IMG/VR virus record: IMGVR_UViG_3300042935_001404
Origin: a virus
Lineage: Duplodnaviria; Caudoviricetes
Strand: one strand, 5' to 3'
DNA length: 64,000 nucleotides
Both the position numbers and the translations under genes were made by a program. Shown here piece by piece: positions 1 through 53,200 of this stretch (positions are counted from its first letter, which is position 1; each line of letters begins with the position of its first letter). Under the pieces are notes generated by a model. That model ran no database searches. It saw nothing but the letters and a program-made list of their open reading frames with translations, and was not told the DNA's origin.

Positions 1-926
1 TCAACGTTGGGTGTTTGATTTATACCGTTAATTGTGACCAAAATTCCAGTTGCGGTAGCGGCCTGGTCCAGGGTGTATGTTGCAGTTGATCCATCTGGTG
101 TGATAGTTTGATTGGTAATATTTGCTATTGCACCGCCGATACTTTCCCAGTCTGATCCAGTGTATATTTCTGTCTGATTCAAGGCGTTGTTGTAGCGTAT
201 TGTTCCTTCCACAGCTGGATCTGGACGCTGTGTGGTGTTACCATATGGAATCGTTATGCCGCCTGTGCCAGATATGGTCACAAGTCCGTTGCCGGTGGCA
301 GTTAGGGTAATGTTTCCATTGGCCAAGTTTGTGGACACTGTGGTATTGGCCACAGTCAAATTGCCAATTGTTACATTGCCAGGATTGTTGGTAACTCCAA
401 GAGCGCCAACATATTCGTAACCTGAGATATACACCACATTTCCTGCAGTCAACACAGTGGGAATTGTTTCGCCAATGAAGTTGAGTACGCCGGCTTGTGT
501 ATCAAAGAAATATTCGCCAACTCCGCCAATACCAGTGGAGAATATCTGTGTGCCGGTGGCTTGAATGTTAGCGGCTGCGGCAGGTCCTACATATACCTTT
601 GGCAACCAAGTGGCTCCAAACTCTTGCGGAATCCAGTATTCAACATTGCTCAGCCATGTGGGACGTATGCCACCTATGGGTGGCACAGTGGTGTCCGGGT
701 CGCACTGCACAGAATTTGCGTTTATACGAGCATTAGCAATGCCAGTGATTGCACCAGCAGAGGAAGTAATTTGGTCAGACTGCATCCATACAATGTCGCC
801 ACGTATGAACGCTGGTGATGCTATGCTTTCGTTTGACGCACTTTTAGTTGTGGCGTTGGCAGTTTTTGCAACACCTTGCAGTTTCTTAAACAGTAGGTCA
901 ATGTATTGTGCGACTGAGACTGCCAT
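1..926 (-). CDS. Virion structural protein, truncated by the left window edge (not in ORF track)
   Basis: ATG at 926-924 overlaps the upstream TAA (TAATG). Hand translation is open to the edge: MAVSVAQYIDLLFKKLQGVAK...IPYGNTTQRPDPAVEGTIRYNN...TINGINQTPNV. Fibre/baseplate-type modules also occur in neighbouring genes. Confidence 0.8.
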   Translation of the reverse strand, partial: MAVSVAQYIDLLFKKLQGVAKTANATTKSASNESIASPAFIRGDIVWMQSDQITSSAGAITGIANARINANSVQCDPDTTVPPIGGIRPTWLSNVEYWIPQEFGATWLPKVYVGPAAAANIQATGTQIFSTGIGGVGEYFFDTQAGVLNFIGETIPTVLTAGNVVYISGYEYVGALGVTNNPGNVTIGNLTVANTTVSTNLANGNITLTATGNGLVTISGTGGITIPYGNTTQRPDPAVEGTIRYNNALNQTEIYTGSDWESIGGAIANITNQTITPDGSTATYTLDQAATATGILVTINGINQTPNV

Positions 927-3427
927 TAGTTACTCGCTACGTTTAGTGATAGGCCGGTCACTGACTGACCTGATGTGAGAGCAACTCTCACATAGATTTC
1001 GTTTGTTGCTGTGCTGGAACTTGAAACAGTTCCAAAAGTACAAGTTTTGTTTGTACTTGCTGTGTTTACGTTGGGAACAACTACACCACCCAGGGCGCAA
1101 CCATCTGACCCGTTACCTGGACTATTAACACCAGGATAACCAGCGCCGGCATAGGCAGTGGTCATCGCAATCCAGCCATTGGCACCAGAACTGGAATCAA
1201 TCACTGATCCTGGCAATGCCACCCATATACCAGCCACATTGCCAGCATAGGTAATGTCAAATTTTGACACATTGGTTCGTATAAATTTGATTGTAAAGTA
1301 CTGTGTTCCTGTGCGGCCAGCACTTAGGTTAGGACCTGCAGGCAAGTATCCTGTTGAATAATTGGTTTGATCATGTTTGAGTACACCTTGTGACCCTGAG
1401 CCTACCACAGTGGCATCGTATGTTTCCAGTGTTGAACTTTGACTGTTAAAGTTTGCTTCGCTGCCTGTGTACGCAGGAGTGTTTCCGGAGCCAGGATTGA
1501 TGATACGAACAGCATTGCCTGACCCTGTGCCAACCCCAGTGACAATAACATTGCCTTCGTCGATGGCAGTGGCAGAGCCTGATTTATACAATGCAATATT
1601 GCCCAGAGCTGAGGTCAATGTCAACGTGCCAGTTGAGTAACTGTTGTTGACACTGATGCTGGGACCAGTTGAACTGCCGCCAAATCCTGTGGTTATGTTT
1701 GCAGTGGTTGAGAATGATGCACTTGCAAACGATCCAAGAACGTTACTGCCAATGTTGCTGGCGCTGTAGTTAACTGATGCAGGTGCCGCAAAACTTCCGG
1801 CGGCTGAACCGGACGCCAAGGTGTTTGATGTTGGGTATGTGTTGCCACTGACATTGGCCACATTGGCAGAAATTGCAAATTGTGTGGCATTGGTATAGTG
1901 CGGAATAGTACTGCTATACAATAAAGTTGGTGACCCTGGCGGAGTCATTGTGCCAGCACTGAAACTGGGAGTAGCAGGACTAGAATTGTCATAGTACCAA
2001 ACAGGTGTGTTGGTATTGCCTGTGGCAGAATCTGCTATGTAAACTTCGTTCCAACCAGCTGGTGCCGCGGTTCCTGACATAGACGATGAGAACACATACC
2101 AGAATCCTGCGGCAATGTTTGCATTGGCGTTGCGATAGTCAAAGTTATTGGTGATCACCAGGTTGCCGCCGTAGGTGCCATTGGCTGTGGGGCTCGCACC
2201 GGCGTTCAAGGTCACATTGCCCACATTGGCACCATTGCGAACCGCAGTGATTGTACCGGTATCTCCAGGGCCAACAGTGCTGATAGTGTTGGTAGCATAG
2301 GTAGCAACACGCAGAATCGTGGTAACAGTGGCACCAGCGGCCACTGCTTTGTTGGCAGCAGGTGTGTTATCTACCTGTGTGATATTGGCCATTCTGTATG
2401 TGGCCAAACCAGAAAGTGACAGTGTTTGTCCGCCCGGAAAATTAGCAGGAGATGGTGGTACCAATTTTCCCAGCACTGTGTTTAGCTGTGTGATACCATC
2501 AGTCACTGTGGTAGTGGTGGTTAAAGTAACAGCATTACTAACAAGGTTGCCCAATGTGTTGGTACCCATTGGGATAAGATTGCCCACTACGCCAATGTCA
2601 GCTGCCGATGACCATGTCAAATTGCCGGAACCGTTGGTGCTTAATACATAATTTGCAGTGCCGCCTGTGATTGTGATATTGGCATTTGAGCCCAGTGACA
2701 ATATTCCAGATGCTGCCGATATAGCGTTGCCAGATAACGTTACTCCATTGGCAACAAGATTACCAGTGGCGTTGACCGTGCCATCTACGTTTGCACCAGT
2801 GCTGGTGACTACAAACACATTGGCAGTGCCTGCTACACTTGTAGCAACATTAGAATTTGCGTAGACTTTTACATTGCTGTTGCCGTTTTGAATTGATGTG
2901 GCATCAATGCCGGTTAATTGACTACCGTTGCCAATGAAGAAGTTACCAGTGATATTACCTGTGGCACTCACTGTGCCTGTGACATCTGCACCTGAGCCTG
3001 TGACCACAAACACATTGGCCGTGCCGCCCACACTTGTGGCCACATTTGCATTGGCATATACTTTTACATTGCTATTGCCATTCTGTATGCTTGTGGCGTC
3101 TATGCCGGTTAGTTGACTGCCGTTGCCAATGAAGAAATTAGCAGTGATGTTGCCGGTAGCACTCATTACACCTGCGGTGTTGACATTTCCGCCTGTGATG
3201 TTGCCAACTGCGCTTACAGTACTAGACGAAAAAAGATTGTTGGCTATCGCATTGCCGACAATATCAAGTGCTTGAACAGGAGTTGCGTTGTTAACACCAA
3301 CTCTGGAATTTACAACGTCAACAAAGACGACCGGGGTGTCGGCTACTGTGTCAGAAATTGCCAGATTAGAACCATCTCTTTCGAGAGTGTTCTTCAACAT
3401 CTGTCCTGCAATTTTGCTAATAGCCAT
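926..3427 (-). CDS. 833-aa Thr/Ser/Gly/Asn-rich virion structural protein (fibre or decoration-like)
   Basis: Long ORF with GNxTxGN beta-repeat composition and an internal 65-aa duplication; TAAATA late promoter upstream. Confidence 0.7.
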   Translation of the reverse strand: MAISKIAGQMLKNTLERDGSNLAISDTVADTPVVFVDVVNSRVGVNNATPVQALDIVGNAIANNLFSSSTVSAVGNITGGNVNTAGVMSATGNITANFFIGNGSQLTGIDATSIQNGNSNVKVYANANVATSVGGTANVFVVTGSGADVTGTVSATGNITGNFFIGNGSQLTGIDATSIQNGNSNVKVYANSNVATSVAGTANVFVVTSTGANVDGTVNATGNLVANGVTLSGNAISAASGILSLGSNANITITGGTANYVLSTNGSGNLTWSSAADIGVVGNLIPMGTNTLGNLVSNAVTLTTTTTVTDGITQLNTVLGKLVPPSPANFPGGQTLSLSGLATYRMANITQVDNTPAANKAVAAGATVTTILRVATYATNTISTVGPGDTGTITAVRNGANVGNVTLNAGASPTANGTYGGNLVITNNFDYRNANANIAAGFWYVFSSSMSGTAAPAGWNEVYIADSATGNTNTPVWYYDNSSPATPSFSAGTMTPPGSPTLLYSSTIPHYTNATQFAISANVANVSGNTYPTSNTLASGSAAGSFAAPASVNYSASNIGSNVLGSFASASFSTTANITTGFGGSSTGPSISVNNSYSTGTLTLTSALGNIALYKSGSATAIDEGNVIVTGVGTGSGNAVRIINPGSGNTPAYTGSEANFNSQSSTLETYDATVVGSGSQGVLKHDQTNYSTGYLPAGPNLSAGRTGTQYFTIKFIRTNVSKFDITYAGNVAGIWVALPGSVIDSSSGANGWIAMTTAYAGAGYPGVNSPGNGSDGCALGGVVVPNVNTASTNKTCTFGTVSSSSTATNEIYVRVALTSGQSVTGLSLNVASN
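2750..3139 (-). repeat. Two tandem 195-nt (65-aa) repeats in the 833-aa protein
   Basis: NFFIGNGSQLTGIDATSIQNGNSNVKVYAN.NVATSV.GTANVFVVT occurs twice; ccgttgccaatgaagaa at 2925 and 3120. Confidence 0.9.
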
Positions 3428-4820: not shown

Positions 4821-5408
4821 TTAGAGATCCTTTTGATTATTTATCCGCATTACAAAGGTACTCAAATCCTCGTGAGTTAAGTTTTTAATCCGGTCTAATT
4901 CTGGTAATCGTGCTGTGGTGTTGCCGCAGATGCGAATAAATTCGGTATCAGGGTGGTCTTTGGCCACAGTTGTCAGTTGTTTTACCCAGTTTCCGGTAAA
5001 AGTTGGACGTGAATCATTGGGTTTGTAAAACTCTGTGCCAGCATACATGTTGTTAAACTGGTTGTGTACATTGGGACCCATGTCGAATCCTATCAGGTAG
5101 ATCCTGCCGTGTTGATCTTTTGCCGCAATGCCCACTGCATTTGGACCAGAACTGAATCCGTAATACTCTTTGGGAACAGCCACAGCACCCAGCCCGGGAA
5201 TGGGTTTTCTTGTGTAGAATCGATGTCGTGCAGAATAGCCTGTTTCTTGTATCAGCTGGGCAATTGGGCGATCTGTTGCCACAAGAACGTCTGGTGTAAA
5301 CTCTCGATAAAGAGCGTTACAGCCATATACTTTTCCCAATGTTTTGATGTGTTCCAACGGCAGGCCGGACCTGCTGACTCCGTTGCCCAACACAAATGCT
5401 ATAGTCAT
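4821..5408 (-). CDS. MAF/DUF115-like (GT29/MptE-like fold) protein
   Basis: VLGNGVSR, YGCNALY, LVATD and IYLIGFD motifs. Confidence 0.55.
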   Translation of the reverse strand: MTIAFVLGNGVSRSGLPLEHIKTLGKVYGCNALYREFTPDVLVATDRPIAQLIQETGYSARHRFYTRKPIPGLGAVAVPKEYYGFSSGPNAVGIAAKDQHGRIYLIGFDMGPNVHNQFNNMYAGTEFYKPNDSRPTFTGNWVKQLTTVAKDHPDTEFIRICGNTTARLPELDRIKNLTHEDLSTFVMRINNQKDL

Positions 5409-5439
5409 AAAAAATCCCCACAGTACTTAGTGGGGATTT
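5409..5439 (-). terminator. Intrinsic terminator hairpin with a TAAGTA late-promoter-like hexamer in the loop
   Basis: AAATCCCCAC (5412-5421) / GTGGGGATTT (5430-5439), perfect 10-bp stem; minus-strand U-run follows; minus-strand loop is TAAGTACT. Confidence 0.7.
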
Positions 5440-5455
5440 GTGAGTTACAACAAAA

Positions 5456-6265
5456 TTAGCTTGTGTAGTTCTCTACAATTGCTAGATCCAATGCACCTGT
5501 TGCCAATTGCTCTGAACCGTTTGTGCCCCAGGTGTCAATTTCAGCACCAGACTTGGCCGTTGTGCCTTCGTCACTGAAGAAGTTGTCAACCAATGTTACG
5601 TTGTCAACAACCAGAGTTGGATTCCAAACGTCACCGGTGTTGGCTCCGCCGCCTGCACAACCGCCGGCAAAGTTCTGCAAGAACTTGTTGGTCAACTTGC
5701 TGACTGTTGTTTCAGTTGAGTCGTTGCTGAAATAACTGATGCTCATGTTGCCGGCTGTAGGAGTTACATCATTTTGCAACACACATGTGCCAACTTCTTG
5801 CGCTGTGCCGGTGGTGCTGCCTGCAGAGGCTACTGTAGGAGTAAAAATAGTACCAATGCCGTAGCCGGCTGGAGCACCCATACTAGCCCATTCAGTGTCA
5901 CCAACTACAGCAATACGCAAGGCCACACCAACCACGGCATCAGCTGGATCAATTGCTGTGGTTGTTGCAACCATAAACTTGCGTGAACCTTTTTGGCGAA
6001 TAATCAATCCAGGTGTTTGACCACTGTAGCTGTTGGTAATGTTTACTTCGCACTTGACGATTGGATAAGCTGCGCTGGCAACGGTTGTAGGTTGTACACC
6101 GCCAACTACACCAAGATATTCTGTGCCAGTCCAAGTACTACTTGGATACACCGGTGCTGTTAAACTTGTTAATGCATTGAAACCAATATCAACTCCAGGG
6201 TTTGCACCGGTGCTAGAGTTATAACTAGCTTCGGTAATTTTTTTAATTTTAAGAGGACGTCCCAT
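5456..6265 (-). CDS. Putative virion structural protein (269 aa)
   Basis: AAGGAG SD; IIRQKGSRKFMV motif; late promoter and structured leader upstream. Confidence 0.65.
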   Translation of the reverse strand: MGRPLKIKKITEASYNSSTGANPGVDIGFNALTSLTAPVYPSSTWTGTEYLGVVGGVQPTTVASAAYPIVKCEVNITNSYSGQTPGLIIRQKGSRKFMVATTTAIDPADAVVGVALRIAVVGDTEWASMGAPAGYGIGTIFTPTVASAGSTTGTAQEVGTCVLQNDVTPTAGNMSISYFSNDSTETTVSKLTNKFLQNFAGGCAGGGANTGDVWNPTLVVDNVTLVDNFFSDEGTTAKSGAEIDTWGTNGSEQLATGALDLAIVENYTS

Positions 6266-6273
6266 TTTGTTTT

Positions 6274-6351
6274 CTCCTTAAAGAAGTCCGATGTGGGTTC
6301 TAGCCACTACGCGGTAGGGTTTAGTCTTCCGCATAAAACGCCGTATTGCGT
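6274..6351 (-). promoter_or_regulatory. Structured 5' leader (four hairpins, the last occluding the SD)
   Basis: Minus-strand stems ACGC/GCGU, AUGCGG/CCGCGU, GUGG/CCAC and CUUCU/AGGAG between TAAATA (6359-6364) and ATG 6265. Confidence 0.55.
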
Positions 6352-6358
6352 TGACAAG

Positions 6359-6364
6359 TATTTA
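6359..6364 (-). promoter_or_regulatory. Late promoter core TAAATA
   Basis: forward tattta; precedes the structured leader. Confidence 0.65.
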
Positions 6365-6401
6365 TGAGTGATTGATATTTTTGCAGTGTCAAAATAACAT
6401 G

Positions 6402-6407
6402 TAAATA
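6402..6407 (+). promoter_or_regulatory. Late promoter core TAAATA, 5 nt before ATG
   Basis: TAAATA-TTGCC-ATG(6413). Confidence 0.65.
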
Positions 6408-6412
6408 TTGCC

Positions 6413-7573
6413 ATGCAAACCACAGAACAACTTATTGCTCAGGGCAATACCTACAGAGAACAACACCTACCAGAACAGGCCCTGCAACAGTACGCTGTAG
6501 CGATGGCCACGGACAGAGGCTCATCGGGTGCGTTCAACAACTACGGCAATGTGCTGAGAGAGATAGGCGATCCTGTGGGCGCTGTTCCGTTTTTACAACG
6601 TGCCATACAGTTGGATCCGGCCAATGTCACACACCATTTTAATTTGTCAGTGGCCTACTTGCTGGGTGGAGACTATGTGCGTGGATGGCCTGCATATGAA
6701 GCACGACACAATTTTGAACATTTGAAAGGTACCATTCCCAACTATCCGTGGCCTGTGTGGAACGGTGAAGATTTAACAGGTAAAACAATTTTTATTCGTG
6801 GCGAACAAGGCCACGGCGATATTATTCAGTTTGTGCGGTTCATACAGAACTTAAAAAACATTGGTGGCACAGTCACAGTGCAAGTGACCAACGGATTAAT
6901 TCCGTTGATACAATCCAGTGAAATTGGCCGCGGAGTGCGAGTAATTGGTTATGCCGAAAATCCGGGTGATGCGTTTGATTACTGGCTTCCCATAATGAGC
7001 CTGCCCGGCAAGTTAAACGTTCGTGTTGACAACTTGCCCACTGTGATTCAATACTTAAATCCTGATCCTGCATTGGTTGCGGACTGGCGCAGGAACCTGG
7101 GAGTAAAAAATCGGCTACGAGTGGGCTTTGCCTGGTCAGGACGACGCGACAGCTGGATCAATCAACACAAGGCCATGCCGTTTGAGACCATGCTGGGATT
7201 GATTCGATCACATGCAGATTACGAATGGTATAATTTACAAACTGACTGTACTGCTGAGGAAGAAAAAGAACTAGAGTCAGTGGGAGTACGCTGTTTTCCA
7301 GGTGGTGTGAACTCGTTTGCTGACACTGCCGCATTGGTTGCAAACCTTGATGTGGTGGTGAGTGTGGACACTGCCACTGCACATCTTGCTGCCGCATTGG
7401 GCAAACCCACTTGGATCATGTTAAACAACTATGCACCTTGCTGGCGCTGGTTGCTGAACAGAGACGACACGCCTTGGTATGCCACTGCAAGATTGTTCCG
7501 TCAACCTCAAATGGGTGACTGGGCCACGGTGGTTGAACGAATCAAGTTACACTTGAAATTGTTTAAGATTTAA
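6413..7573 (+). CDS. TPR-repeat plus GT9-like glycosyltransferase
   Basis: N-terminal TPRs (AFNNYGNVLREIGD..GAVPFLQRAIQLDP); GEQGHGDIIQFVRF, VGFAWSG, DVVVSVDTATAHLAAALGKPTWIML. Confidence 0.8.
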   Translation: MQTTEQLIAQGNTYREQHLPEQALQQYAVAMATDRGSSGAFNNYGNVLREIGDPVGAVPFLQRAIQLDPANVTHHFNLSVAYLLGGDYVRGWPAYEARHNFEHLKGTIPNYPWPVWNGEDLTGKTIFIRGEQGHGDIIQFVRFIQNLKNIGGTVTVQVTNGLIPLIQSSEIGRGVRVIGYAENPGDAFDYWLPIMSLPGKLNVRVDNLPTVIQYLNPDPALVADWRRNLGVKNRLRVGFAWSGRRDSWINQHKAMPFETMLGLIRSHADYEWYNLQTDCTAEEEKELESVGVRCFPGGVNSFADTAALVANLDVVVSVDTATAHLAAALGKPTWIMLNNYAPCWRWLLNRDDTPWYATARLFRQPQMGDWATVVERIKLHLKLFKI

Positions 7574-7697
7574 CAGGTTGCATTTGCACAGGCACAACAG
7601 GAGACGCAGGCCTGGGTTGTGGTAATCCCAAGGTTGTTCCTACTGGACTTGCATGCTTCTCAGGAAATAGGCCTGAATATTTTATTTGGTTGATCAT
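7563..7697 (-). CDS. 44-aa Pro-rich late ORF (below ORF-track cutoff)
   Basis: MINQIKYSGLFPEKHASPVGTTLGLPQPRPASPVVPVQMQPVKS*; perfect TATAAATA 5 nt upstream. Confidence 0.55.
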   Translation of the reverse strand: MINQIKYSGLFPEKHASPVGTTLGLPQPRPASPVVPVQMQPVKS

Positions 7698-7702
7698 ACC
7701 AA

Positions 7703-7710
7703 TATTTATA
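7703..7710 (-). promoter_or_regulatory. Late promoter TATAAATA (full T4 consensus)
   Basis: forward tatttata, just past the gp23 terminator. Confidence 0.7.
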
Positions 7711-7716
7711 CCCAAT

Positions 7717-7744
7717 AAAAAAGCACTCCGAAGAGTGCTTTTTT
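7717..7744 (-). terminator. Intrinsic terminator of the capsid operon
   Basis: Minus strand AAAAAAGCACTC-TTCG-GAGTGCTTTTTT: C(UUCG)G tetraloop plus U-tract, typical of T4-like phages. Confidence 0.9.
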
Positions 7745-7772
7745 CCTTCCCATCCCTGGGTGGATTCTCTGA

Positions 7773-8969
7773 TTAAGAGAAAGACAAGTTTTGAACAGCA
7801 ATCTCGCCAACATAGTCAGCGGCGTTACCGAAAGAACTTGCAGTGTTTGTCAACTCTACGAAGCCATAACGAGTCATAAATGACACGACTGGTTCGAATG
7901 TTGATGGGTCAAGAACCACACCACTACTCATTAACGGAATATAAGGGCAATAGAATGCGGCAGCATCTGCCTCACTAGTACCTTTGTAGCCAACCAATAC
8001 GTTAGCAGTGTCGCTAGCATAGGAGTTAACAAATACACGCATAGCACCGTTCAATGTACCAACAAACTTGGTGTTTGTAGGTGCTTCGAATGTGCCTTCT
8101 GTTGTGCGAGCAAACGCTGAAGTAGTTGCACTTTGCAACACTGTCAATGCGGCTGGCGAAACAACAGCCCAGTTACCTGCGCCACGACGTGTACGTTGGG
8201 CGATCAAGTTAGCTGTACGGTTGATCAACACTGCCAAAGCAGCGTGTTCGTCACCCACAAACGTAGCAGTACCGGAAACGGTAGCTTGGTTGTATGTGTA
8301 CTCAACAGCAGCCAATGTGCTCAAACTCAAGAGAATCTCTTGGTCAATCTCAGCAGTGATCTCTTGTGCAAGAGCTGCCATGATTTCTGCTTCAACGTCA
8401 ATACCGTGCATGGCTTGTGCGTCTTGTGCAGATTCAAATGTCCAACGTGCTTGCAACTTACGTGTCTTGGCTTCAACTGCTTGCTTCAAGATTTGAACGG
8501 AAATTTGCTTACCGCCGTTACCTTCAAGCGTTGCTGTGTTAGCGCCTGTGTAAGTTGATGTTGATGTTGTATCTTTGCCAACTGTAGAGTATGCAGTGGC
8601 AATAGTGAATGGACTCAATGCTTCTTGACCAGCTGTAACACTAGTAGCGGCTGCTGAGTTGTCAGTCAAGTTACCAGCGTAACGCACACGTAGAGTGTGG
8701 ATCTGACCAACTGGACCTGTCATTGGCTGAACGCCTACCAACTCGTTAGCAATAACTGTTGGCATTACACGACGGATAACTGGTAGAATCACACGGTTTA
8801 ATGTAGCGATGTTGCCAGATGCTGTGGAACCAGCACTTGCGTTTTCTTTCAAGTACTTACGTGTATTCTCAAGAATAACGTTCATACTAGTGCGCTTAGA
8901 ACCGTTTAGACCTTCGAGCAATGCTTCCTTGGTCTCGTCCCAGCGACCTTCTAATAATTGTTGTGACAT
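7773..8969 (-). CDS. gp23: Major capsid protein (T4 gp23 family)
   Basis: VGVQPMTGPVGQI, RKLQARWT.E.AQD, EI.AEIDQEI, AFYCPYIPL and MTRYG motifs; follows gp22. Confidence 0.95.
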   Translation of the reverse strand: MSQQLLEGRWDETKEALLEGLNGSKRTSMNVILENTRKYLKENASAGSTASGNIATLNRVILPVIRRVMPTVIANELVGVQPMTGPVGQIHTLRVRYAGNLTDNSAAATSVTAGQEALSPFTIATAYSTVGKDTTSTSTYTGANTATLEGNGGKQISVQILKQAVEAKTRKLQARWTFESAQDAQAMHGIDVEAEIMAALAQEITAEIDQEILLSLSTLAAVEYTYNQATVSGTATFVGDEHAALAVLINRTANLIAQRTRRGAGNWAVVSPAALTVLQSATTSAFARTTEGTFEAPTNTKFVGTLNGAMRVFVNSYASDTANVLVGYKGTSEADAAAFYCPYIPLMSSGVVLDPSTFEPVVSFMTRYGFVELTNTASSFGNAADYVGEIAVQNLSFS

Positions 8970-17621: not shown

Positions 17622-17638
17622 AAAAAAGGTAAATCTGA

Positions 17639-17644
17639 TAAATA
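17639..17644 (+). promoter_or_regulatory. Late promoter core TAAATA
   Basis: TAAATA-TTAGT-ATG(17650). Confidence 0.6.
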
Positions 17645-17649
17645 TTAGT

Positions 17650-18270
17650 ATGAAAAATTACTACGTTTACAAATATCTAAGAGAGGACGGTACTCCTTAT
17701 TATGTGGGCAAGGGCAAAGGAAACAGAGCATATCTAAACGGTCGTTCTACACCTAAGCCACCTCAACTCGACCGGATCCATCTTATCAAAGAAAATTTAA
17801 CCGAGGAAGAGGCATTTGCACTAGAGTGTAAGTTGATTGCAGAGTATGGCCGTAAGGATCTAGGAACCGGCGTATTGCGTAACCTCACAGATGGTGGTGA
17901 GGGCGTATCTGGTAGAATAGCCAACCCCGAGTCTATCAAAAAACGTGTGGTTAAAAATACAGGTAAAAAACGCACACTAGAGCAAAAGAAACGCATGAGC
18001 CAGTCCCAGTTGGTTAGAAAACAAAAATCAAAAGAAGAACAGCAAGTGATATCAGAAAAAATATCTGCGAATCGCAAAGGTAAAGGTACCGCTCCTAAAT
18101 CCAAAGAGCATAAAGATAAATTATCTCAACTCAATAAAGGAAAGTCTCCTGGCAAGAGATCCGAAGAAACCAAACAAAAAATGCGCAAGCCAAAATCAGA
18201 AGCACACCGCAAAGCTATATCAGATGGACGCAAAGCAAAATATGCTGCTCTTAAGGCACAACAATGCTGA
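17650..18270 (+). CDS. Free-standing GIY-YIG/NUMOD3 homing endonuclease
   Basis: YYVYKY..DGTPYYVGKGKGNRA, ECKLI, LRNLTDGGEG; repeated NUMOD3-like RSEETKQKMR and KSEAHRKAIS. Confidence 0.85.
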   Translation: MKNYYVYKYLREDGTPYYVGKGKGNRAYLNGRSTPKPPQLDRIHLIKENLTEEEAFALECKLIAEYGRKDLGTGVLRNLTDGGEGVSGRIANPESIKKRVVKNTGKKRTLEQKKRMSQSQLVRKQKSKEEQQVISEKISANRKGKGTAPKSKEHKDKLSQLNKGKSPGKRSEETKQKMRKPKSEAHRKAISDGRKAKYAALKAQQC

Positions 18271-43800: not shown

Positions 43801-44263
43801 ACTGACCACCGAGTATGCAGGACTACAAGACTACAAAATGATTTCTGACAATATGATCATTAACTCAGTTGACTTTAAGCCGTTGTTTGGCATCAAGGCA
43901 GCACCAGAGTTACGTGCAACTATCAAAGTTATTCGTGCCAGTGGATCCACTGCATCAGTCAGCGAAATAAAGAGTTTGGTAGTGTCCTTCATCAATAGTT
44001 ATTTTGCAATTGAAAATTGGAATTTTGGTGATACGTTCTATTTCTCAGAACTATCTGGATACCTGCACCAGAACATTGGCGATGTAGTGAGTTCTGTTGT
44101 GTTAGTTCCAATAAGTCCGCAAAAGAGTTTTGGCGACTTGTATGAAATACGGTCAGCACCAAATCAGATTTTTGTTAACGCAGCCACAGTGGCAGACATT
44201 CAAGTAATTGAAGCACTGACCAGCACAAATCTTAAAACTGCCCCTGGCAGCGGAGTAATTTAA
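40829..44263 (+). CDS. gp6: Baseplate wedge protein gp6 (extended)
   Basis: SYDFETLR, FNDYIESS, ENYLDTAERRDSV..LA....Y.PKR, FGDG..IP, IKQRAP..Y..QNRMV..EDY. Confidence 0.9.
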   Translation: MAKTTRQTAVFGVEDWKRIYQTYQEANFQSYDFETLRKSFVDYIRLYYPETFNDYIESSEFIALLDVMAFMGQALAFRTDLNTRENYLDTAERRDSVVKLANLVSYTPKRNTEASGYLKVFSIQTTENIVDYNGINLSNITVNWADPTNFDWQEQFTAILNSALVNTQRYGRPGNRTTINGIRTDEYTVNLLPGFLPVIPYSSVVDGVNMPFEAVSATASGLGYVYEPSPRPNGQFNVLFRNDQLGFASPNTGFFFLFKQGVLQNQDFNLPERIANRAVNINIEGVNNTDRWLYQLDNVGTISREWEFVESVYTAAAEQLTTLRPIYSVTSRANDQITMNFGDGVFSEIPVGTFRAYVRASNGLQYIINPEEMQNVLLSISYVSRRGQLETLTMTCGITEPVSNALARETIAEIKQRAPARYYTQNRMVNGEDYNNFPFTQYNSIIKSKALNRASIGTSRYLDLVDNTGKYSSTNTFSSDGALYEYNALPTFLFTWLTTNEISDVITNQIEVNLANSPAKQFYYANFPRPSLIPLAVTWNESTTLANETTGYFKNSAGNPVSVGQYASNNMQYVQVGSLIKFVPPSGYYFDANNKLVLGTPTRADEKLIIWAAATAIYNDGTNQGLGNFSNGLGPVVLNNFVPTGSVCSQVIPLFVTDLGTDVRNDAAAQIELYRNFGLGYNNLTKTWYLITSNNLAIDATWSQAYAGNTSGTNLDASWFLQFVTDGESYTVTSRALNYYFGSVLQTRFFFYGDEQIYDSRTGTTIRDFVKVLKTNSKPDSNLPLESDISMRIIDQPVQPDGYVDDYQVLVSWQDNDADGVPDDPDFFNTIVAPNVNPTTKNVFFQQIVDFDNLERYVLVEPGVINSQYATLDDIEVVKAQYIVGQVFYAYGVYNTTTLVYTTPPAFYILSLTATGTTELVTTTDYITRIGRQDLFFQYRHNSSLTNRIDPGSTNIIDVYVVTQAYYTAYRNYIVDSTGTVPEPEPPSLDTLTTEYAGLQDYKMISDNMIINSVDFKPLFGIKAAPELRATIKVIRASGSTASVSEIKSLVVSFINSYFAIENWNFGDTFYFSELSGYLHQNIGDVVSSVVLVPISPQKSFGDLYEIRSAPNQIFVNAATVADIQVIEALTSTNLKTAPGSGVI

Positions 44264-47200
44264 TGGCAAAAGTGAGAACAGTAGATTTTCTACCAGAGAT
44301 ATTTCAGACATCTACCAACAAGCAATTTTTGGCTGCTACCCTGGACCAATTGGTTCAAGAGCCGCAGTTTAAAAAGACACAGGGATATGTTGGACGTCGC
44401 GTAGGGCCAGGCGTAAATGCCGACGACAAATATGTTGTTGAACCTACTCGATCTCGCACAGATTATCAATTAGAACCGGGTGTTGTATTCAGAAAAACTG
44501 ATTCCACAGTGATCAAGGACGCAGTCACGTATCCCGGCATCACTGATGCTCTAGGCACACAAGGTGCGTTTGTTGATCAAAGCGAAAGACTCTACACCAG
44601 CGAATACTATACCTGGGATCCGCAGATTAACTGGGACAAGTTTGTAAACTACAGCCAATACTATTGGTTACCTGATGGTCCGTTGTCAGTTGATGTAGGT
44701 GGCACAGCAGTTCCGCTCACTGCAGACTACACTGTCACAAGAGAAAATGGCGTATACACATTTTCAAACTATACCGGCAGCAATCCTACAATTACATTAT
44801 TGCGCAACGGCAACTACACATTCACTGTGGCACAGAATGCAACAGAAACTGTAAACTATCGTGTCACGGCAGCCACAACATCAGCATACATTATTGATTA
44901 CTTGCCAAATCCACCACTGACACTTGTGCGTGGAAACACCTATGTGTTCAATTTAAATCTTGGTGTAGTATCGCCATTCTGGATTAAAACCTCTCCGTCA
45001 CAGGGCCGTATTGATCAATACAACACTGGTGTAAGTCGCAACGGTGCAAACACCGGCAACATTACATTTACTGTGCCACAAGACGCACCTGACACCTTGT
45101 ACTACGCAAGTGAAACACAGTTTAACATGCAAGGCGTGTTGACAATTGTTGACGGAACTCCGGGCACAGGTCCGGGTTTTTGGATTCAGGCAGAACCAGG
45201 GGTCGAAGGTGTACTGCCTTATGCACCTAACATTTCTAGTAGAGATGTGCTGGGCGTAACCAACAACGGTGAAGATCTTGGAGTAGTGACATTCAATGTT
45301 CCTGAGTCTACTGCACAGAGTTTTTACTATGGGTTGACCAGCATTGGCTCTGTCGACCTGGCCACAAATTTATTATTTGATCAAATTAACAATGTTTTCT
45401 TATCTGAATTTTTTGCAGCCAACCCAACGGGCATTGATGGTACTACAAATTTAAATGGTCGAACATTGGTATTTCTCAACACAACTACGGGCGATGATGG
45501 ATGGGAAGTTGTCAGTCCATTTGATCCATTGCCTGCATCTGGAATTGGAACCGGTAGCTATGACAGCACAGCATTTGCACAGGCAATTCCACTTACTCAG
45601 CCTGACCGTTACAGTGTATGGCAAATAACATACGTAACATCATCTGGTGGCCAGCAGTACATTCAATTAAATCCAGTATTGCCAGTGGCTGAGTTGGAAA
45701 AGTTTACTATTGCCTTTGGTAATCAGTATTCAAATACTGGTTGGTATAAAGATGCATCTGGGTACTTTGAAGAAATTCCGTTGTTGACAGCAATCAAAGA
45801 TACATTGTATTATCAAGACGGAACAGACCCTGGAATTTTTGGGCAAATTCGGTTGCTTGATCAAACCAACGCAACCACAACATATATCAACGATATTATT
45901 GGAAAGCCCAACTATACCAGTTCAAATGGTGTGGTGTTTACTAATGGACTCAAAGTTCAATTTCGTGGCAGCACAATACCAGCCGAATACGAAAACCAAG
46001 AATACTATGTTGAAGGTGTAGGCACAGCAATTAAATTACTACCTGTTGGTGATTTTATCACTCCAGAGCCATATACTCAAAATGCACTTATTCCGTTTGA
46101 TAGTTTAAGATACGATGAGGGAAACTATGATGCTTCTTTGAATGCGCCACTAATTCCAGAGTATCTTACAATTGGTCGTGCTAGTCCTGATTTAAATCCC
46201 TGGACACGTAGTAATCGTTGGTTCCACATTGATGTTATCAATGCATCTGCCACTTATAACAACACAACACCAATTTTAAGCAACTCTCAAAGTGCTAAAC
46301 GTCCTATTATAGAATTTAATGCAGGAACACGCCTGTACGATTTTGGAACCCAAGGAAAACTGCCGGTTAATATTGTTGACTTTACTATCACAGATGCGCT
46401 GAGCACCATTAACGGATCACTGGGCTACGGCATTGACGGATACGAATTTGTCAACGGTACCCGTGTTATTTTTGCAGCTGATACTGACTCTGAAGTTAGA
46501 AATAAAATTTACGTTGTAAATTTCATTACGCCTGACACTGTGCCGCCATTGATTGCACAACCTATTATTGATCTAGTTCCTGCTGACGACTCCACAGTAC
46601 TGGTTGATCAAACCGTAGTCACACTTAGCGGATTAACAACACAAGGAACAAGTTATTATTACGATGGTATCACTTGGTTAAGAGCACAACAAAAGACAGC
46701 TACAAATCAAGCGCCATTGTTTAACGTGTATGATTCTGCTGGAATTAGTTTCAGTGACCGTGCCAAGTACCCTAGCTCTACATTTGCTGGCAGTAAGTTG
46801 TTCAGTTATGCCACTGGACAGGGCGCCGTGGATACTGTGCTGGGATTGCCACTGCGTTACCTAAGTATAAACAACATTGGTGACATTGTATTTGATAATA
46901 ATTTTTATACAGACCAATTTACCTATGCCATACAAAATACTGCGCAGACTATTAATATAAGTGACGGGTACTCGTATCAATATGTTGATCGAGTTATATA
47001 TGAACGCGAACTTGGCTGGCAAGTGGCAGCAACTCCAAGTTTAATTCGTCAACAATTTCAGTTTGCGTACGACGGATCCCCATTACGATTCAATATCAAT
47101 ATACCTGAGAATACCGTTGTTCCTGCAATACAACTGTATGTGGCCAACAAATATATCTTGCCTGCAGAATATACAGTAACAAGAACGGCTGCTACAACCA

Positions 47201-50200
47201 CAATCATATTGAACAATATCTATACGCCAGGATCAATCATTGAGGTTCAAGTCTTAAGCAATGATCTAAGCGACAATGGATTTTATCAAGTGCCAATTAA
47301 TTTGGCAAACAATCCCTTCAACGTTAACAGTCCTTACTTTACGCTGGGAACCATAAGAACACATTACGAAAGTATTGCTAGAAATCTAATTGACTTTACC
47401 GGTGACATTAACGGTCCAAACAACACACGCGACCTGGGCAACATTGGTCGTTACGGTACAACCATACTGGAACAGAGTGCGCCATTGACCCTGGCTGGCT
47501 TCTTTATGAGAAGCAGTGAATACAATATCTTTAAGTCGTTGGAGTTCAACGATAGAGAGTATACCAAGTTTAAAAATAGACTGTTAGAAAATGCCATTCG
47601 CAACGAATGGGGTAATTTAACAACAAGCGAAATTCTTGATTCTGTGGTTACTGATTTAAATATTGGTAAAACTAACATAAACAGTTTCTATTACAGCGAT
47701 ATGTTGCCCAGTGGCAATGTTTATACAGACACTGTTTACACAGTGACACCGATCACAGTTGGCATATTTGACACACTACAAACACACTCGTTTACTTCTG
47801 CAAACTTCTTAGGCTTATTGGTATACCTAAACGATACACTGCTGACACTAAACTATGACTACACAGTGGCCACAGATGGCCCAACACTTACTGTTACTGT
47901 TCCACTCACAGTTGGCGATGTGGTCACCATTCGTGAATATGCAGACACCGCAGGAAATTATGTTCCCAATACTCCTACCAAGATGGGCCTGTATCAGGCA
48001 TTTAAACCTGAAGTGTTCTTGGATGAAAACTATGTAAACCCAACTGTTGTTATCCGTGGCCATGATGGCAGTATTACCACAGCATTTGGTGACATGCGCG
48101 ATGATATCTTATTGGAGTTTGAACGTAGAATTTTCAACAACTTAAAGACTGAAGGCAATCCAGTACCAATACCACCTGAAGAAGTGATTCCTGGTTATTT
48201 CCGCACAACAGATTATACTCAGGCCGAGATTACAACTATTCTAGGTGAAAGTTTCTTGACCTGGGTAGGGCAAAACAAACTGGATTACAAAACACAGCAG
48301 TACATTGCCAACAATCCGTTTACCTACAATTATAGCCAAGCCGGCGATAAAGAAAAAGATTTGCCGTTGCTGGGAGCCTGGCGCGGCATCAGTAGATATT
48401 TCTATGATACACTAAGTCCCAACTACACTCCGTGGGAAATGCTGGGCTTTAGCCAACAGCCCGCATGGTGGGAAACACGCTATGGTCCTGCGCCATACAC
48501 ACAGGATAACTTGGTGTTATGGGACGACATACAAGCTGGTATCGTTGCTGATCCAGACGGATATTATATTAAACCTGACTTCGTAAGACCAAACTTATCA
48601 ACCTACTTCATACCCACCGGCACAGAAGGCCAACTACTGTCTCCATTGGACAGTGTGGTTGGGCAGTATGATCCTAATGCATTCCGCAAGAGCTGGGTAG
48701 TCGGCGATGGCGGCCCTGTAGAGGCTGCATGGTGGACCTCCAGTAGTTACCCATTTGCTGTGATGCGCCTGTTGGCACTAACACGCCCGGCAAAATTCTT
48801 TAGTTTGTTTGCGGACCGAGACCTTTACAAGTACAGCACAGAATTTGAACAGTATCTGTACAATGGGCGATATCGCTTAGATGCCAATGGCGTTGAGGTG
48901 TATGGTGGCAACGTTGATATATCAACAGGTGTTGTTACTCCTGTTAGCAAGGCCAGTTACATCAACTGGATTGTTGATTACAATCAACAGCTGGGTATTA
49001 ACTCAACACAGGCATTGGAAGAAGCACTGGCAAATCTTGACGTGCGACTGTGCTGGAGAACTGGAAGTTTCACAGATAAAGAATATCTTAAAATATACAC
49101 AGAACGTTCTAGCCCTAACAGTTTGAATTCAAGTTTGCTGTTGCCCGACGAAAGTTACGACTTGATGTTGTACAAAAACTCACCGTTTGCCAGTGTGGCA
49201 TACAGTGCAGTGATCGTTCAACTGACCGATGCAGGATATGCAGTATTTGGCTACAGCACAACTGATCCTTACTTTGACATTTATGCAAGCCGCACCAGCG
49301 GCGAGTTACAAACTATCAGCGCCGGCGGCAGTACAGTGCGTGTTCCACGACAATACACAAACGATATTGTGCAAGTTCCATACGGATTTGTGTTTACCAA
49401 CCAATCAAGTGTGGTTGATTTCTTGTTGAGTTATGGACAATACTTGACCACGCAAGGTCTAGTGTTTGACACACGAGAAAACGGTTACACACTTGACTGG
49501 AAACAAATGGCCAGTGAGTTTCTTTATTGGGCAAACCAAGGCTGGGCTGTTGACAGTTTAATTAATTTAAATCCGGCAGCACTGCAATTGACTGCAGAAA
49601 GACCCGGAGCAGTGGTTGACAGCATCAGTGTTCAAAATCCAGAAAACATGTTGTTGGATCAAAACCGTACACCGTTTGATGCTAGAAATTTGGTAATTGA
49701 ACGATTGGAAAACAGATTCACAATAAATGGCACAAACAACCAGGCAATTTCTTATGTTAAATTACAATTTGTTAGCTATGAAGACATTGTAATACTCAAC
49801 AACGTTAGTATTTTTGCAGACTTAATTTATAATCCCCCAACCGGCGCACGACAGACTCGTGTTTATGTTAGTGCTATCACAACCACTGAGTGGAACGGAA
49901 CATTAAATGCACAGGGCTTTGTGCTCAACCGAGACAATGTCAAAGAGTGGGCTCCGAATATCAAGTATGCTAAGGGCGAAATTGTTCTGTACAAAAACCT
50001 CTATTGGTCTGCACAAGATATTATTCAACCCAAGCGAGAATTTGCCTATTCTGACTGGGTCAAGAGCGATTATACCAAGATACAAAAAGGCCTTTTGCCC
50101 AACATCGCAAACAAAGCAGATCAGTTAGAGAACAGTTATAACACACAAACTGCAAACCTAGAAGCTGACAACGATCTACTGAGCTTTGGATTAATTGGAT

Positions 50201-53200
50201 TCCAACCAAGAGACTATATGGTTGCATTGAATCTTGACGATACCAGTCAAGTCAACTTGTATCAACAATTCATTGGCACCAAAGGAACAATATTAAGTGC
50301 AGAAATATTCACCGGTGCTAATCTTGCCAAAGAAATTGCTGACTATCAAATTTACGAAAACTGGGCTGTACTACGCGGCACATATGGAGCAAACGCAAAT
50401 CGCAGCTATGTTGAGTTGAGATTAAACGAAGCACTGTTACAAAGTGACCCAGCCACTGTGCAGATAATTGAGCCAGGCGAATCAAGTTTGGCAAATCAAA
50501 CTGTGCTGTTAAATGACGTATGGCGCGAAAGTTATAAATTAACTTCTCCAGACTTTTTAACAACTACCACAACTCAGATCACTGACACAGCATTGCCAAG
50601 CGCAGGCTATGTCAACATCAACGACGTTGATATAACAGTATTCTCCTTGGATGATCCAAGCACTATTGCCGCAAACTTAGACACCATCGGTAACGGCACT
50701 AAAATATGGGTGGCCAAAACCAACAGCTACGATTGGAATATATATCGTGCTACTCAAGTGCCAGGTAGAATTACTCGTGTGACCGACAACCTTGATGGCA
50801 CTAGTTTAGTAGCATTTACTCAAGTACATAAATTATCTCTAGGCGATATCCTAATTGTTCGATTCTTCAACGACGCCTTTAACGGCGTATATCGAGTACT
50901 GACTACCCCTACCCCAACCACGCTCACTGTGGCCTACACATTCCCAAATGGCAATCAAACTACCATAACTGGATCAGGGATAGGATTTTATCTTGACACC
51001 ATGCGTGTCGCCCAGGCCAGTGACATTGGCACATTGTCCTTTGCCAACGACTTGATTCCAGGTGCAATGGCCTGGGTTGATAACAACGGTTCTGGACTAT
51101 GGGAAGTACTTGAAAAACAAAATGTTTTTGCCGCCGGCTATGCACTTGAGCCAAGCAATCTAGTGCTTGACAGTGGGTATGGCACAAGTATTGCCCAAGC
51201 ATACGAAAATATTGCAGCATTGGTTGGCGCACCATTGTACGATGGTGGTGTTGGTGCAATTTACCCATACCTGCGTGGCCAGGGTAATTTATATGAAGCA
51301 AGTCCATTAATGCAACTAGGAACTGCTGACACAGTGGGATATGGCAGTGCATTGGCAATTGGTTACCAAGACTGGGCCATTGTGGGTGCCCCTCAAAGTT
51401 ATAGTGGCGTCGGTTATGTAGCGATACTCTACCGAGCACCTGCAAGTAATACATTCTTGCAAACGCAACTGTTGATTGCACCTGATTACCTAGCAAGTGC
51501 CGGCAGTTTTGGTTCGTCAGTGGCCATCAGCCGAGATGAACGTTGGGCGTATGTTGGCGCTCCTGCACAAGATGCAGTGTATGCATATGGTCGCGTTGAT
51601 TTAGAAATTCAAGAAGTAACGTATATCGGCGATAGCGTTACTACATCATTTAATTACAGCAATAATTTAGTGTTTGATCTAGCACACCCAGCACAGATCA
51701 CTGTATTGCTTAATAACTCTATACAGCAGTACGGAGTTGACTACGATCTAAGCGCGACCTCGGTAATATTTAACACTGCTCCGCTTCAAGATTTACCAAT
51801 TGTGATAACACGAAATATGTTATCACAATTGGATGCCGAAACATATTATAATGTTGAACAAGACTCAACAGACGGTTCCGGTATACTTGCAACATTTACA
51901 GTTGAGAGAGTTCGCGGAGACTATGAAGTTACAATTACCGGTCCAGGCGTATTCTACCAAATTGGAGACACACTTACCATTGACGCGGCCACCATTGGCG
52001 GAGGCACGTCGCCTGCAAATGATTTAGTCATTACTATAACTGCTATTGAAGGCAGCGGAGCAATCACTGGATTTACATATTCTGGTTCAGGCGTTTCAAA
52101 CACATCTGTATTTGATTTAAGTACAACGCTGTACACTGCTACAAATCTTAATTCTTTCAGTGTTCGTGTCAACGGCGTACTACAACGTCCTTATATTGAT
52201 TATACATTTGCAGGAACTACATTAACTTTTGTTACATTACCAGCGGCTGGCACCAAAATTGAGGTTGAAACTGGTTCATATTTTGCATACGTTGAAACTA
52301 TGACTGGTCCGGCAGGTTCTGGATTTGGAACAAGTGTAGCAACAGCAACAGATGGACAGCAAATAGTAATTGGTGCGCCAACAGATGTAAACAATGCGTT
52401 GATCAATGGCAGCACATATGTGTACGATCGCAGTGTCGCAAGATATCAAGTTGGTGTTGGTGAAACAGCAGTGACAACTTTCGCACTGCCCGCTGGGTTC
52501 AACACTCCAGTATCTGTGACGCTCAATAATGCGTTCTTAACTGATGCTGATCAAATCTTGGGCGGACAATTTACAGTGTCTGGCAGTGATGTAATATTAG
52601 AAGATAATGTAACATTGGCAGTGGGCGACATAATTGAAGTTGAAAGCAATATTTTCCAGTTGGTGCAGAAGATTACAATTAACAAGCCATTTGATCAAGC
52701 AAGTTTTGGCAGTTCGGTTGACCTGTGCTCAAATAATTGCAGTATCTATGTTGGTGCACCAACTGATGGCACAGTGTTACCAGGTGCTGGCAGTGTACAA
52801 CGCAGTGTAAATCAATCTCGTGTGTACGGAGTAATATCATCTCTAATTCCAAATCCTGTGTTGACAGGTGGCGATACACTGCGTATTGACAACTATGAAA
52901 TCGTAATTCCCAACAGCCCCAACAACACTGTAGCCGGGGTTGTTGACGCCATTAACACTGCCAACGAAGGTGTTGGCATTCCCAATGTACGAGCTTCTGC
53001 TCCGGGCGATTTATTCTTTGTAGGCGACGGGGTTGTAAAAACATATGACATTGGTGTAACTTACTCACAATACACCACTTACAATCCGTTGGTATATGTT
53101 GACACTGTAGTGCAAATTCTCAATGTTGACTATACGTACAACAACAGCACTGGTATTATTAGTTTTATTACTGCTCCTGCTGAACAATCTAGCATACGTG

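Follow-up and report, generated by a model that had tools for sequence, protein, structure and literature searches.

A freshwater-2 RNA of an uncultured giant T4-like phage as the probable leader of a late gene, with a tentative model of control at the start codon

What does a long, structured leader do on a late gene of a virus in which the other late genes carry short leaders or none? The question is raised by a locus on the minus strand of a 64,000-nt stretch of Caudoviricetes DNA (hereafter the window) from the IMG/VR record IMGVR_UViG_3300042935_001404. Upstream of an open reading frame (ORF) of 269 amino acids, a sequence-only reading of the window had picked out a TAAATA element, three short hairpins, an AUCGGA segment and a CUUCU arm facing the Shine-Dalgarno (SD) sequence, and every string that it listed is present at its place on the minus strand. 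It had also described the leader as unusually long, which is borne out by a predicted length of 88 nt; elsewhere in the window, the late-promoter motif NATAAATA itself stands about 5-30 nt before the start codon, so that leaders there are predicted to be very short or absent. The features of the locus are collected in Table 1, in which the first two hairpins have been extended.

Table 1. Features of the leader and of its predicted transcription unit in the window.
Feature	Position	Strand	Remarks
T4-type late promoter motif, -10 element CATAAATA	6359-6366	-	contains TAAATA (6364-6359); then 5 nt to the P1 region
Predicted +1, C6353	6353	-	6 nt past the final A of the -10 element; the Rfam match starts here
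P1 hairpin, AACGC-AAUACG-GCGUU	6337-6352	-	ACGC-AAUACG-GCGU of the sequence-only reading, extended; predicted 5′ end of the transcript
P2 hairpin, UAUGCGG-14 nt-CCGCGUA	6308-6335	-	AUGCGG-14 nt-CCGCGU of the sequence-only reading, extended
CCC in the P2 loop	6317-6319	-	candidate partner of G6263-G6261 (G of AUG and GG of codon 2)
P3 hairpin, GUGG-CUAGAAC-CCAC	6293-6307	-	covariation and loop conservation
Tail AUCGGACUUCUUU, 13 nt	6280-6292	-	AUCGGA after P3, then CUUCU (6286-6282)
SD, AAGGAG	6274-6279	-	strong; AGGAG at 6278-6274; UUA separates CUUCU from AGGAG
A-rich spacer AAAACAAA	6266-6273	-	between the SD and AUG 6265-6263
269-aa ORF (MGRPLKIKK...)	5456-6265	-	no Pfam or PHROG family
Intrinsic terminator AAAUCCCCAC-UAAGUACU-GUGGGGAUUU and U run	5409-5439	-	stops immediately 5′ of ATG 5408, where the next gene starts

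The identity of the leader is given by a search with cmscan against Rfam, in which the freshwater-2 family (RF02980, type Cis-reg) is matched at 6263-6353 (-) over model positions 1-84 of 84, with 68.9 bits against a gathering score of 49.9 and an E-value of 2e-08 over the 64-kb window (1e-10 locally). This is the sole Rfam match above threshold in the window, and the element is single-copy in the 114-kb viral record that contains it. The Rfam consensus consists of exactly three hairpins and an unpaired tail ending in AAGGAGAAAAcAAAUG; aligned to it, the window copy has the same three hairpins, the UUAUGC...GCGUAG junction, the CUAGAAC loop of P3 and the AAGGAGAAAAcAAAUG tail. The 3′ end of the match falls on the AUG of the 269-aa ORF, on the sense strand, and a sense-strand position directly 5′ of a coding gene is found for all 165 hits that we collected. 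With its Cis-reg type in Rfam and its constant place before an SD and AUG, the leader is a conserved element, and the sequence-only reading is supported in taking it for a structured one that acts in cis. By this match it is almost certainly a member of the freshwater-2 family, which is already catalogued in Rfam, and, judged by the alignment, the window copy is an ordinary member with no structural difference. Other identities for the leader were rejected: the only match to another Rfam family was to a lncRNA at an E-value of 0.78, which is chance level, and, for a tRNA or tRNA-like element, ARAGORN returned 0 genes in 6150-6500 and Rfam no tRNA-type match at E-values up to 1. From its Rfam and Wikipedia description, we take freshwater-2 to be a motif of aquatic and freshwater metagenomes without occurrence in classified organisms, and we know of no organism, gene function or mechanism assigned to it. 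The motif is said to originate from the 2017 comparative screen of Weinberg and colleagues. The main text of Weinberg et al. 2017 (PMC5737381) does not contain the name of the motif, and the searchable text of papers holds no mention of freshwater-2 or RF02980.

Folded as a single sequence, the leader is unremarkable (minimum free energy of -26.3 kcal/mol, z = -1.25 against shuffles), and because it folds no better than shuffled sequences, thermodynamics alone would not single it out. For covariation, the DNA upstream of 64 IMG/VR loci encoding relatives of the 269-aa protein was collected, giving 37 distinct leaders. Here, the pairing of P1, P2 and P3 is conserved, the 16 pairs of the three helices being paired in 99.8% of cells, with compensatory double changes at 7 of them. 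No column shuffle out of 500 was as good as the observed pairing, and in a control with the 3′ partners slid by 1-3 columns, pairing drops to 28-62%; RNAalifold independently recovers the same three helices. Among the close relatives, P1 shows compensatory GC to AU and AU to CG changes along with a C-G to U-G change, and in divergent members its sequence and length vary and its place at the predicted 5′ end is constant. P2 is 100% paired, with pair 54:72 seen as GC, AU and UA in the 37 relatives and with a U-G wobble that is invariant across them, and in a divergent clade the base of the stem is made of CUCGGAG/CUCCGGG instead. P3 directly adjoins P2 and covaries at all four pairs, which head the mutual-information ranking for 136 unique leaders; besides these pairs, the scan, run on anchor-aligned blocks, returned only alignment or codon artefacts. 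Across the wider family, upper P2 and the whole of P3 covary. Because the invariant U-G pair of P2 and the U-G form of the P1 pair can form on the minus strand only, a function at the level of RNA is indicated.

The leader is also conserved in sequence at particular unpaired and junction positions. The P3 loop CUAGAAC is identical in all collected leaders but one (AUAGAAC, in the second copy on a contig designated L180); in alignment A6, its C21 column is conserved to at least 90% and the remaining six loop positions do not vary. Nearly all copies share the junction YUUAUGC...GCGUAG, which is altered in the most divergent clade alone. Several further proposals for this RNA were tried and set aside. 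An extra helix drawn by RNAalifold, GGRC/GUCC, encloses the SD and AUG, and copies with AGA as the Arg codon keep GGAC and lose GUCC. A pseudoknot of the P2 loop with the tail (UGGG/CGGA) shows no consistent pattern by eye in alignment A1, and for P1 as an attenuator-terminator, the U run 3′ of the hairpin is not conserved in divergent copies.

The genome that carries the window copy can be placed by its major capsid gene, a gp23-type gene within the window (Pfam E-value 3e-97). Its nearest relatives at the DNA level, about 68% identical, are the capsid genes of jumbo myoviruses, among them Vibrio phage 2.275.O, the PBECO4 group and PA5oct, and because the capsid gene is closest to these viruses, we take the source to be an uncultured giant (jumbo) T4-like phage; CheckV estimates the 114-kb record to be 29% complete. 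The reach of the motif was then followed independently of the gene, with the pattern GCGTA-N4-CTAGAAC-N4-AT and a second pattern for AUGGCA starts, both applied to further viral contigs, and with confirmation of the leaders by a covariance model built in this analysis. Among the 100 viral contigs listed for the first pattern, 86 true copies were found, all of which precede proteins starting with MGRP or MA(K/R). The covariance model yielded the 165 hits overall, with 139 unique cores, and all copies found are on IMG/VR viral contigs. In prokaryote genomes, none of the at least 120 pattern matches listed has the SD and AUG context, and a pattern scan of 50,697 deposited phage genomes found no freshwater-2 leader. 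One contig, L180, carries two freshwater-2 leaders about 480 nt apart, at 723-844 (-) and 1205-1325 (-), each with its own NATAAATA and each before a gene starting AUGGGAAGACCA (MGRP); the two genes look like small tandem paralogues.

Where would transcription of such a leader begin and end? In T4, late promoters have the form TATAAATA, and transcription starts about 6 nt downstream. Applied to CATAAATA, this spacing places the predicted +1 at C6353. The spacing between the NATAAATA motif and P1 is constant throughout the homologous leaders, whose nucleotide conservation starts sharply at the motif. In 102 of 132 unique leaders, pairing begins 0-1 nt from the predicted +1, and in 124 of the 132 it begins no more than 4 nt away. 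In the window, ATAAATA is not over-represented (11 observed vs 10.3 expected), and 9-10 of the 11 NATAAATA copies lie about 5-30 nt upstream of start codons. Three window promoters read NATAAATA-N5-ATG, and leaderless mRNAs are therefore predicted. Sigma-70 promoters and extra terminators in 5300-7900 were found at chance level only. At the other end of the unit, a 10-bp GC-rich hairpin followed by U6 comes directly after the stop codon (5458-5456), with a folding energy of -21.4 kcal/mol (z -4.6), and the terminator is conserved 3′ of homologous genes with compensatory changes in the stem. The proposal that the leader heads a structural operon of 1-6.3 kb finds no support, given this covarying terminator right after the 269-aa gene and a further late promoter at 4844-4837; since the conserved terminator is directly 3′ of the gene, the unit is read as one of a single gene. 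The element is very probably the 88-nt 5′ leader of a late mRNA, and the transcript is most likely monocistronic, about 950 nt long, with predicted ends at 6353 and 5439-5409.

Other details of these flanking signals were observed. A semi-conserved AAAATATTTG box is found about 10-25 nt upstream of NATAAATA in many, not all, homologous loci (L002-L065), its counterpart in the window being AAAAATATCAAT. The arrangement of NATAAATA or TGTAAATA, exactly 5 nt and ATG is seen at four genes, at 17637-17652 (+), 11864-11849 (-), 7710-7695 (-) and 6395-6415 (+), from which leaderless late mRNAs would arise if T4 late-promoter spacing holds. The loop of the terminator (UAAGUACU in the window, AAUAAGUACU in relatives) resembles the late promoter ATAAATACT, and the 3′ arm of the hairpin (GGGGAUUU) doubles as the ribosome-binding region of the gene that follows, with its ATG at 5408. 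RNA that reads through the terminator would hide the binding site of this next gene, and RNA started from the terminator loop would not.

The product of the unit belongs to a large family of proteins for which annotation is scarce. There are 1770 metagenomic homologues of the 269-aa protein, on contigs of up to 362 kb, and among the 120 listed, all but one are unnamed or called 'hypothetical protein'; a tblastn search of deposited phages did not find the protein. An AlphaFold model (pLDDT 83.5, pTM 0.82) gave no Foldseek match in the PDB at an E-value of 0.001 or better, its matches in BFVD are uncharacterised phage proteins only, and the ESM Atlas gave no useful lead. In a wide structure search, the best hits were SH3/Tudor-like barrels with a best Z of 4.8, which is within the range of noise, and no RNA-binding family is recognisable in the protein. 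The leader is present at every homologue locus with enough upstream DNA, down to 52% protein identity, and behind the divergent leaders stand proteins of 117-453 aa that start with MGRP(L/I)(N/K)K..FG or MA(K/R), most of which have a common core of about 120 aa. The 269-aa product is probably an abundant late virion protein, a reading drawn from its late promoter, its strong SD and a terminator of its own, and from its neighbours, with the capsid gene on the upstream side and tail-fibre-like genes on the downstream side. About 50 aa of a giant ORF of 4841 aa at 44263-58788 (about 54778-54927, +) match positions 95-145 of the 269-aa family profile at an E-value of 1.5e-9, and this giant protein, presumably structural, and the leader-bearing protein have an insert module in common. 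Glycosylation-type enzymes stand on both sides of the leader-bearing gene: the divergent neighbour at 6413-7573 (+) is a TPR and glycosyltransferase-9-like protein, and the gene past the terminator, 4821-5408 (-), has a weak sialyltransferase-like PHROG match.

How the leader might act on its gene is suggested by the loop of P2. Each 4-mer between -8 and +8 relative to the AUG was scored for an exact complement in the P2 loop region. The 4-mer UGGN, made up of the UG of AUG and two bases of codon 2, has such a complement in 47% of 136 leaders, with 24% for the next-best window and 9% or less for all others, and no permutation out of 2000, in which loops were set against the starts of other leaders, reaches the UGGN value. 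The loop base 5′ of CC varies with codon 2. Where this codon is GGN (115 unique leaders), the base is C in 95, A in 15, U in 2 and G in 0, with no motif found in 3; where it is GCN (24 unique leaders), the base is G in 18, A in 3, U in 3 and C in 0, the motif being found in every one. The switch of the loop base from C to G coincides with that of codon 2 from GGN to GCN, without wrong-way cases, as NCCA:UGGN′ pairing would predict. In a tree made from the other columns of the leader, the class of codon 2 changes about 5 times, with 2 changes on supported branches, and with so few independent events (2 supported contrasts) a phylogeny-aware sign test on the switch, in which the automatic loop-base label is noisy, cannot reach significance. 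The P2 loop cannot be placed in register by simple anchoring or by MAFFT, so column-based pair counting is uninformative for the pseudoknot. Part of the complementarity comes free, because the AUG and the G of Gly/Ala codons are constrained by coding. In the window itself, only CCC:GGG can form, flanked by U-U and A-A mismatches and limited to 3 bp because U6316 faces U6264, and ViennaRNA puts part of the loop CCC into an extension of P2. As a candidate contact, NCC[A]:UGGN′ is nonetheless better supported than the SD-occluding hairpin of the sequence-only reading, and it is in this form, with a P2 loop that could pair with the start codon, that the proposal of translational control survives.

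We propose that the RNA adopts one conserved structure rather than two competing ones, in which P1 caps the 5′ end, P2 and P3 form a platform of fixed sequence, and a pseudoknot of the P2 loop gates the start codon, probably together with a protein partner. From the sequence comparisons above, we give this reading a probability of roughly 0.45. Late transcription would begin about 6 nt past CATAAATA, at 6353, and stop at the terminator, 5439-5409. P1 would close the 5′ end of the transcript and may protect it from 5′-end-dependent decay, and P2-P3, with the conserved junction and the CUAGAAC loop, may serve as a fixed platform for recognition. The SD and the A-rich spacer would be kept single-stranded, and translation would be controlled at the start codon, not at the SD. 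Here, the 3′ side of the P2 loop (NCC[A]) would pair with UGGN′, creating a short pseudoknot that gates 30S initiation and that is stabilised or released, most likely by a protein, possibly the product of the MGRP family. The start-codon clamp, taken as a mechanism on its own, is put forward a little more tentatively than the composite fold. It is rather unlikely, and offered as speculation, that freshwater-2 serves jumbo T4-like phages as a translational operator whose clamp is set or released by a protein reading the P2-P3 junction and CUAGAAC, perhaps the MGRP product.

The sequence-only reading had placed control at the SD instead, in a bistable switch where a CUUCU/AGGAG hairpin hides the SD and pairing of UACG in loop 1 with CGUA flips the fold. 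Both complementarities exist in the window, and in the main subfamily CUUCU is strictly conserved, with a loop between CUUCU and AGGAG that varies from 3 to 7 nt and both arms kept, as is compatible with a hairpin. However, the 5-bp hairpin contributes -1.1 kcal/mol by itself and about -2.2 kcal/mol on top of the three-hairpin fold, and most of the SD is left unpaired in the Boltzmann ensemble (base pairing probability 0.01-0.35). Its five pairs are invariant in the 37 close relatives, and because they never vary, covariation cannot test them. The hairpin is also outside the Rfam consensus: the main subfamily keeps the tail at 6280-6292, in divergent members A/U-rich linkers of 6-13 nt take its place, and about 30 divergent tail variants are without the CUUCU arm. 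As for the second fold, UACG does find its complement within GCGUAG, but the pairing is not conserved, as 3 of its 4 pairs break without compensation in about half of the 37 relatives, leaving 62% of cells paired. As a working part, the SD-occluding hairpin is not supported, and a bistable switch is very improbable; CUUCU may exert a weak, lineage-specific damping of the SD in the main subfamily. Similar evidence bears on the suggestion of a riboswitch-like motif, with P1-P3 as the aptamer for a small molecule. Like such elements, the leader is a structured 5′ UTR under strong conservation; some of its unpaired nucleotides never vary, and an ORF follows it directly. Against this, a single fold is conserved, with no mutually exclusive conserved pairings, and no conserved expression platform was found, the U tract after P1 and the sequestration of the SD both varying across the family. 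Three simple hairpins in a row, with neither a multi-helix junction nor internal loops, would also make a poor binding pocket, the downstream gene encodes a late protein rather than a metabolic or transport function, and no other Rfam family matches. A small-molecule riboswitch is accordingly judged less probable still than the bistable switch.

A simpler reading would have no regulation and no partner at all: the leader would be a constitutive booster of expression, in which P1, perhaps with P2 and P3, guards the 5′ end and the open AAGGAG gives very high translation. A P1 that almost always sits at the predicted 5′ end, a strong and unpaired SD, and a unit with its own promoter and terminator all suit this reading, and in a genome where other late genes have short leaders or none, the extra RNA could serve a gene that needs more product. 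Yet a stabilising hairpin needs no fixed sequence, whereas the junction, CUAGAAC and the U-G pair (the last in the 37 close relatives) are nearly fixed, and the match between P2 loop and start codon, specific to each codon-2 class, would be left unexplained. Because the leader sequence has stayed fixed though the proteins have diverged beyond recognition by BLAST, specific recognition is favoured, and we consider a pure booster unlikely, if by no means far-fetched. Recognition could also take another form, with P3 as a mimic of a tRNA anticodon arm that recruits a tRNA-binding enzyme or a ribosomal component. The thrS operator is a precedent for tRNA-like mimicry, and the anticodon loop has a textbook pattern. 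In all but one copy, C-U-AGA-A-C fits this pattern, pyrimidine32-U33-NNN-purine37-N38, and a covarying stem closes the loop. The stem of P3, however, has 4 bp rather than 5, ARAGORN detects no tRNA-like gene, and no aminoacyl-tRNA synthetase or other tRNA enzyme is linked to the motif, all of which makes such mimicry as improbable as a riboswitch.

The proposed single fold with a gated start codon can be set beside known translational operators. Those of E. coli rpsO (S15), T4 gene 32 and gene 43, and the MS2 coat protein sequester the initiation region within a pseudoknot or a hairpin. Freshwater-2 shares with them a structured leader beside an accessible SD, a possible pairing of the start codon and a hairpin that a protein could plausibly read; it differs in having no similarity to them in sequence or by covariance model, and in a candidate helix of 3-4 bp. 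These operators are what freshwater-2 may work like, rather than a class to which it belongs. A second likeness is to the ompA 5′ UTR and the T7 gene 10 leader, where 5′-terminal stabiliser hairpins are combined with a strong SD. In common with these, the present leader has a hairpin 0-4 nt from the predicted 5′ end and an open, strong SD in A/U-rich surroundings, and it precedes a gene with its own promoter and terminator. The ompA and T7 gene 10 elements need no conserved loop or junction, whereas the P2-P3 sequence of freshwater-2 is fixed across very distant relatives.

The window copy opens no new class of element. What it adds to the Rfam entry for freshwater-2 is context: a late promoter of T4 type at constant spacing, the MGRP family of proteins, the terminator, and a P2 loop complementary to the start codon. 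Together with about 165 related copies, it places an orphan motif in uncultured giant T4-like phages, where freshwater-2 would stand at the start of a self-contained late unit encoding members of a single conserved family of proteins. The start-codon clamp and the 5′ cap hairpin provide a concrete and testable model of how this leader may work. Feedback coupled to assembly is known from the scaffolding protein of phage P22. Should the MGRP product turn out to read the clamp, the leader would give these phages an assembly-coupled feedback on an abundant late protein.
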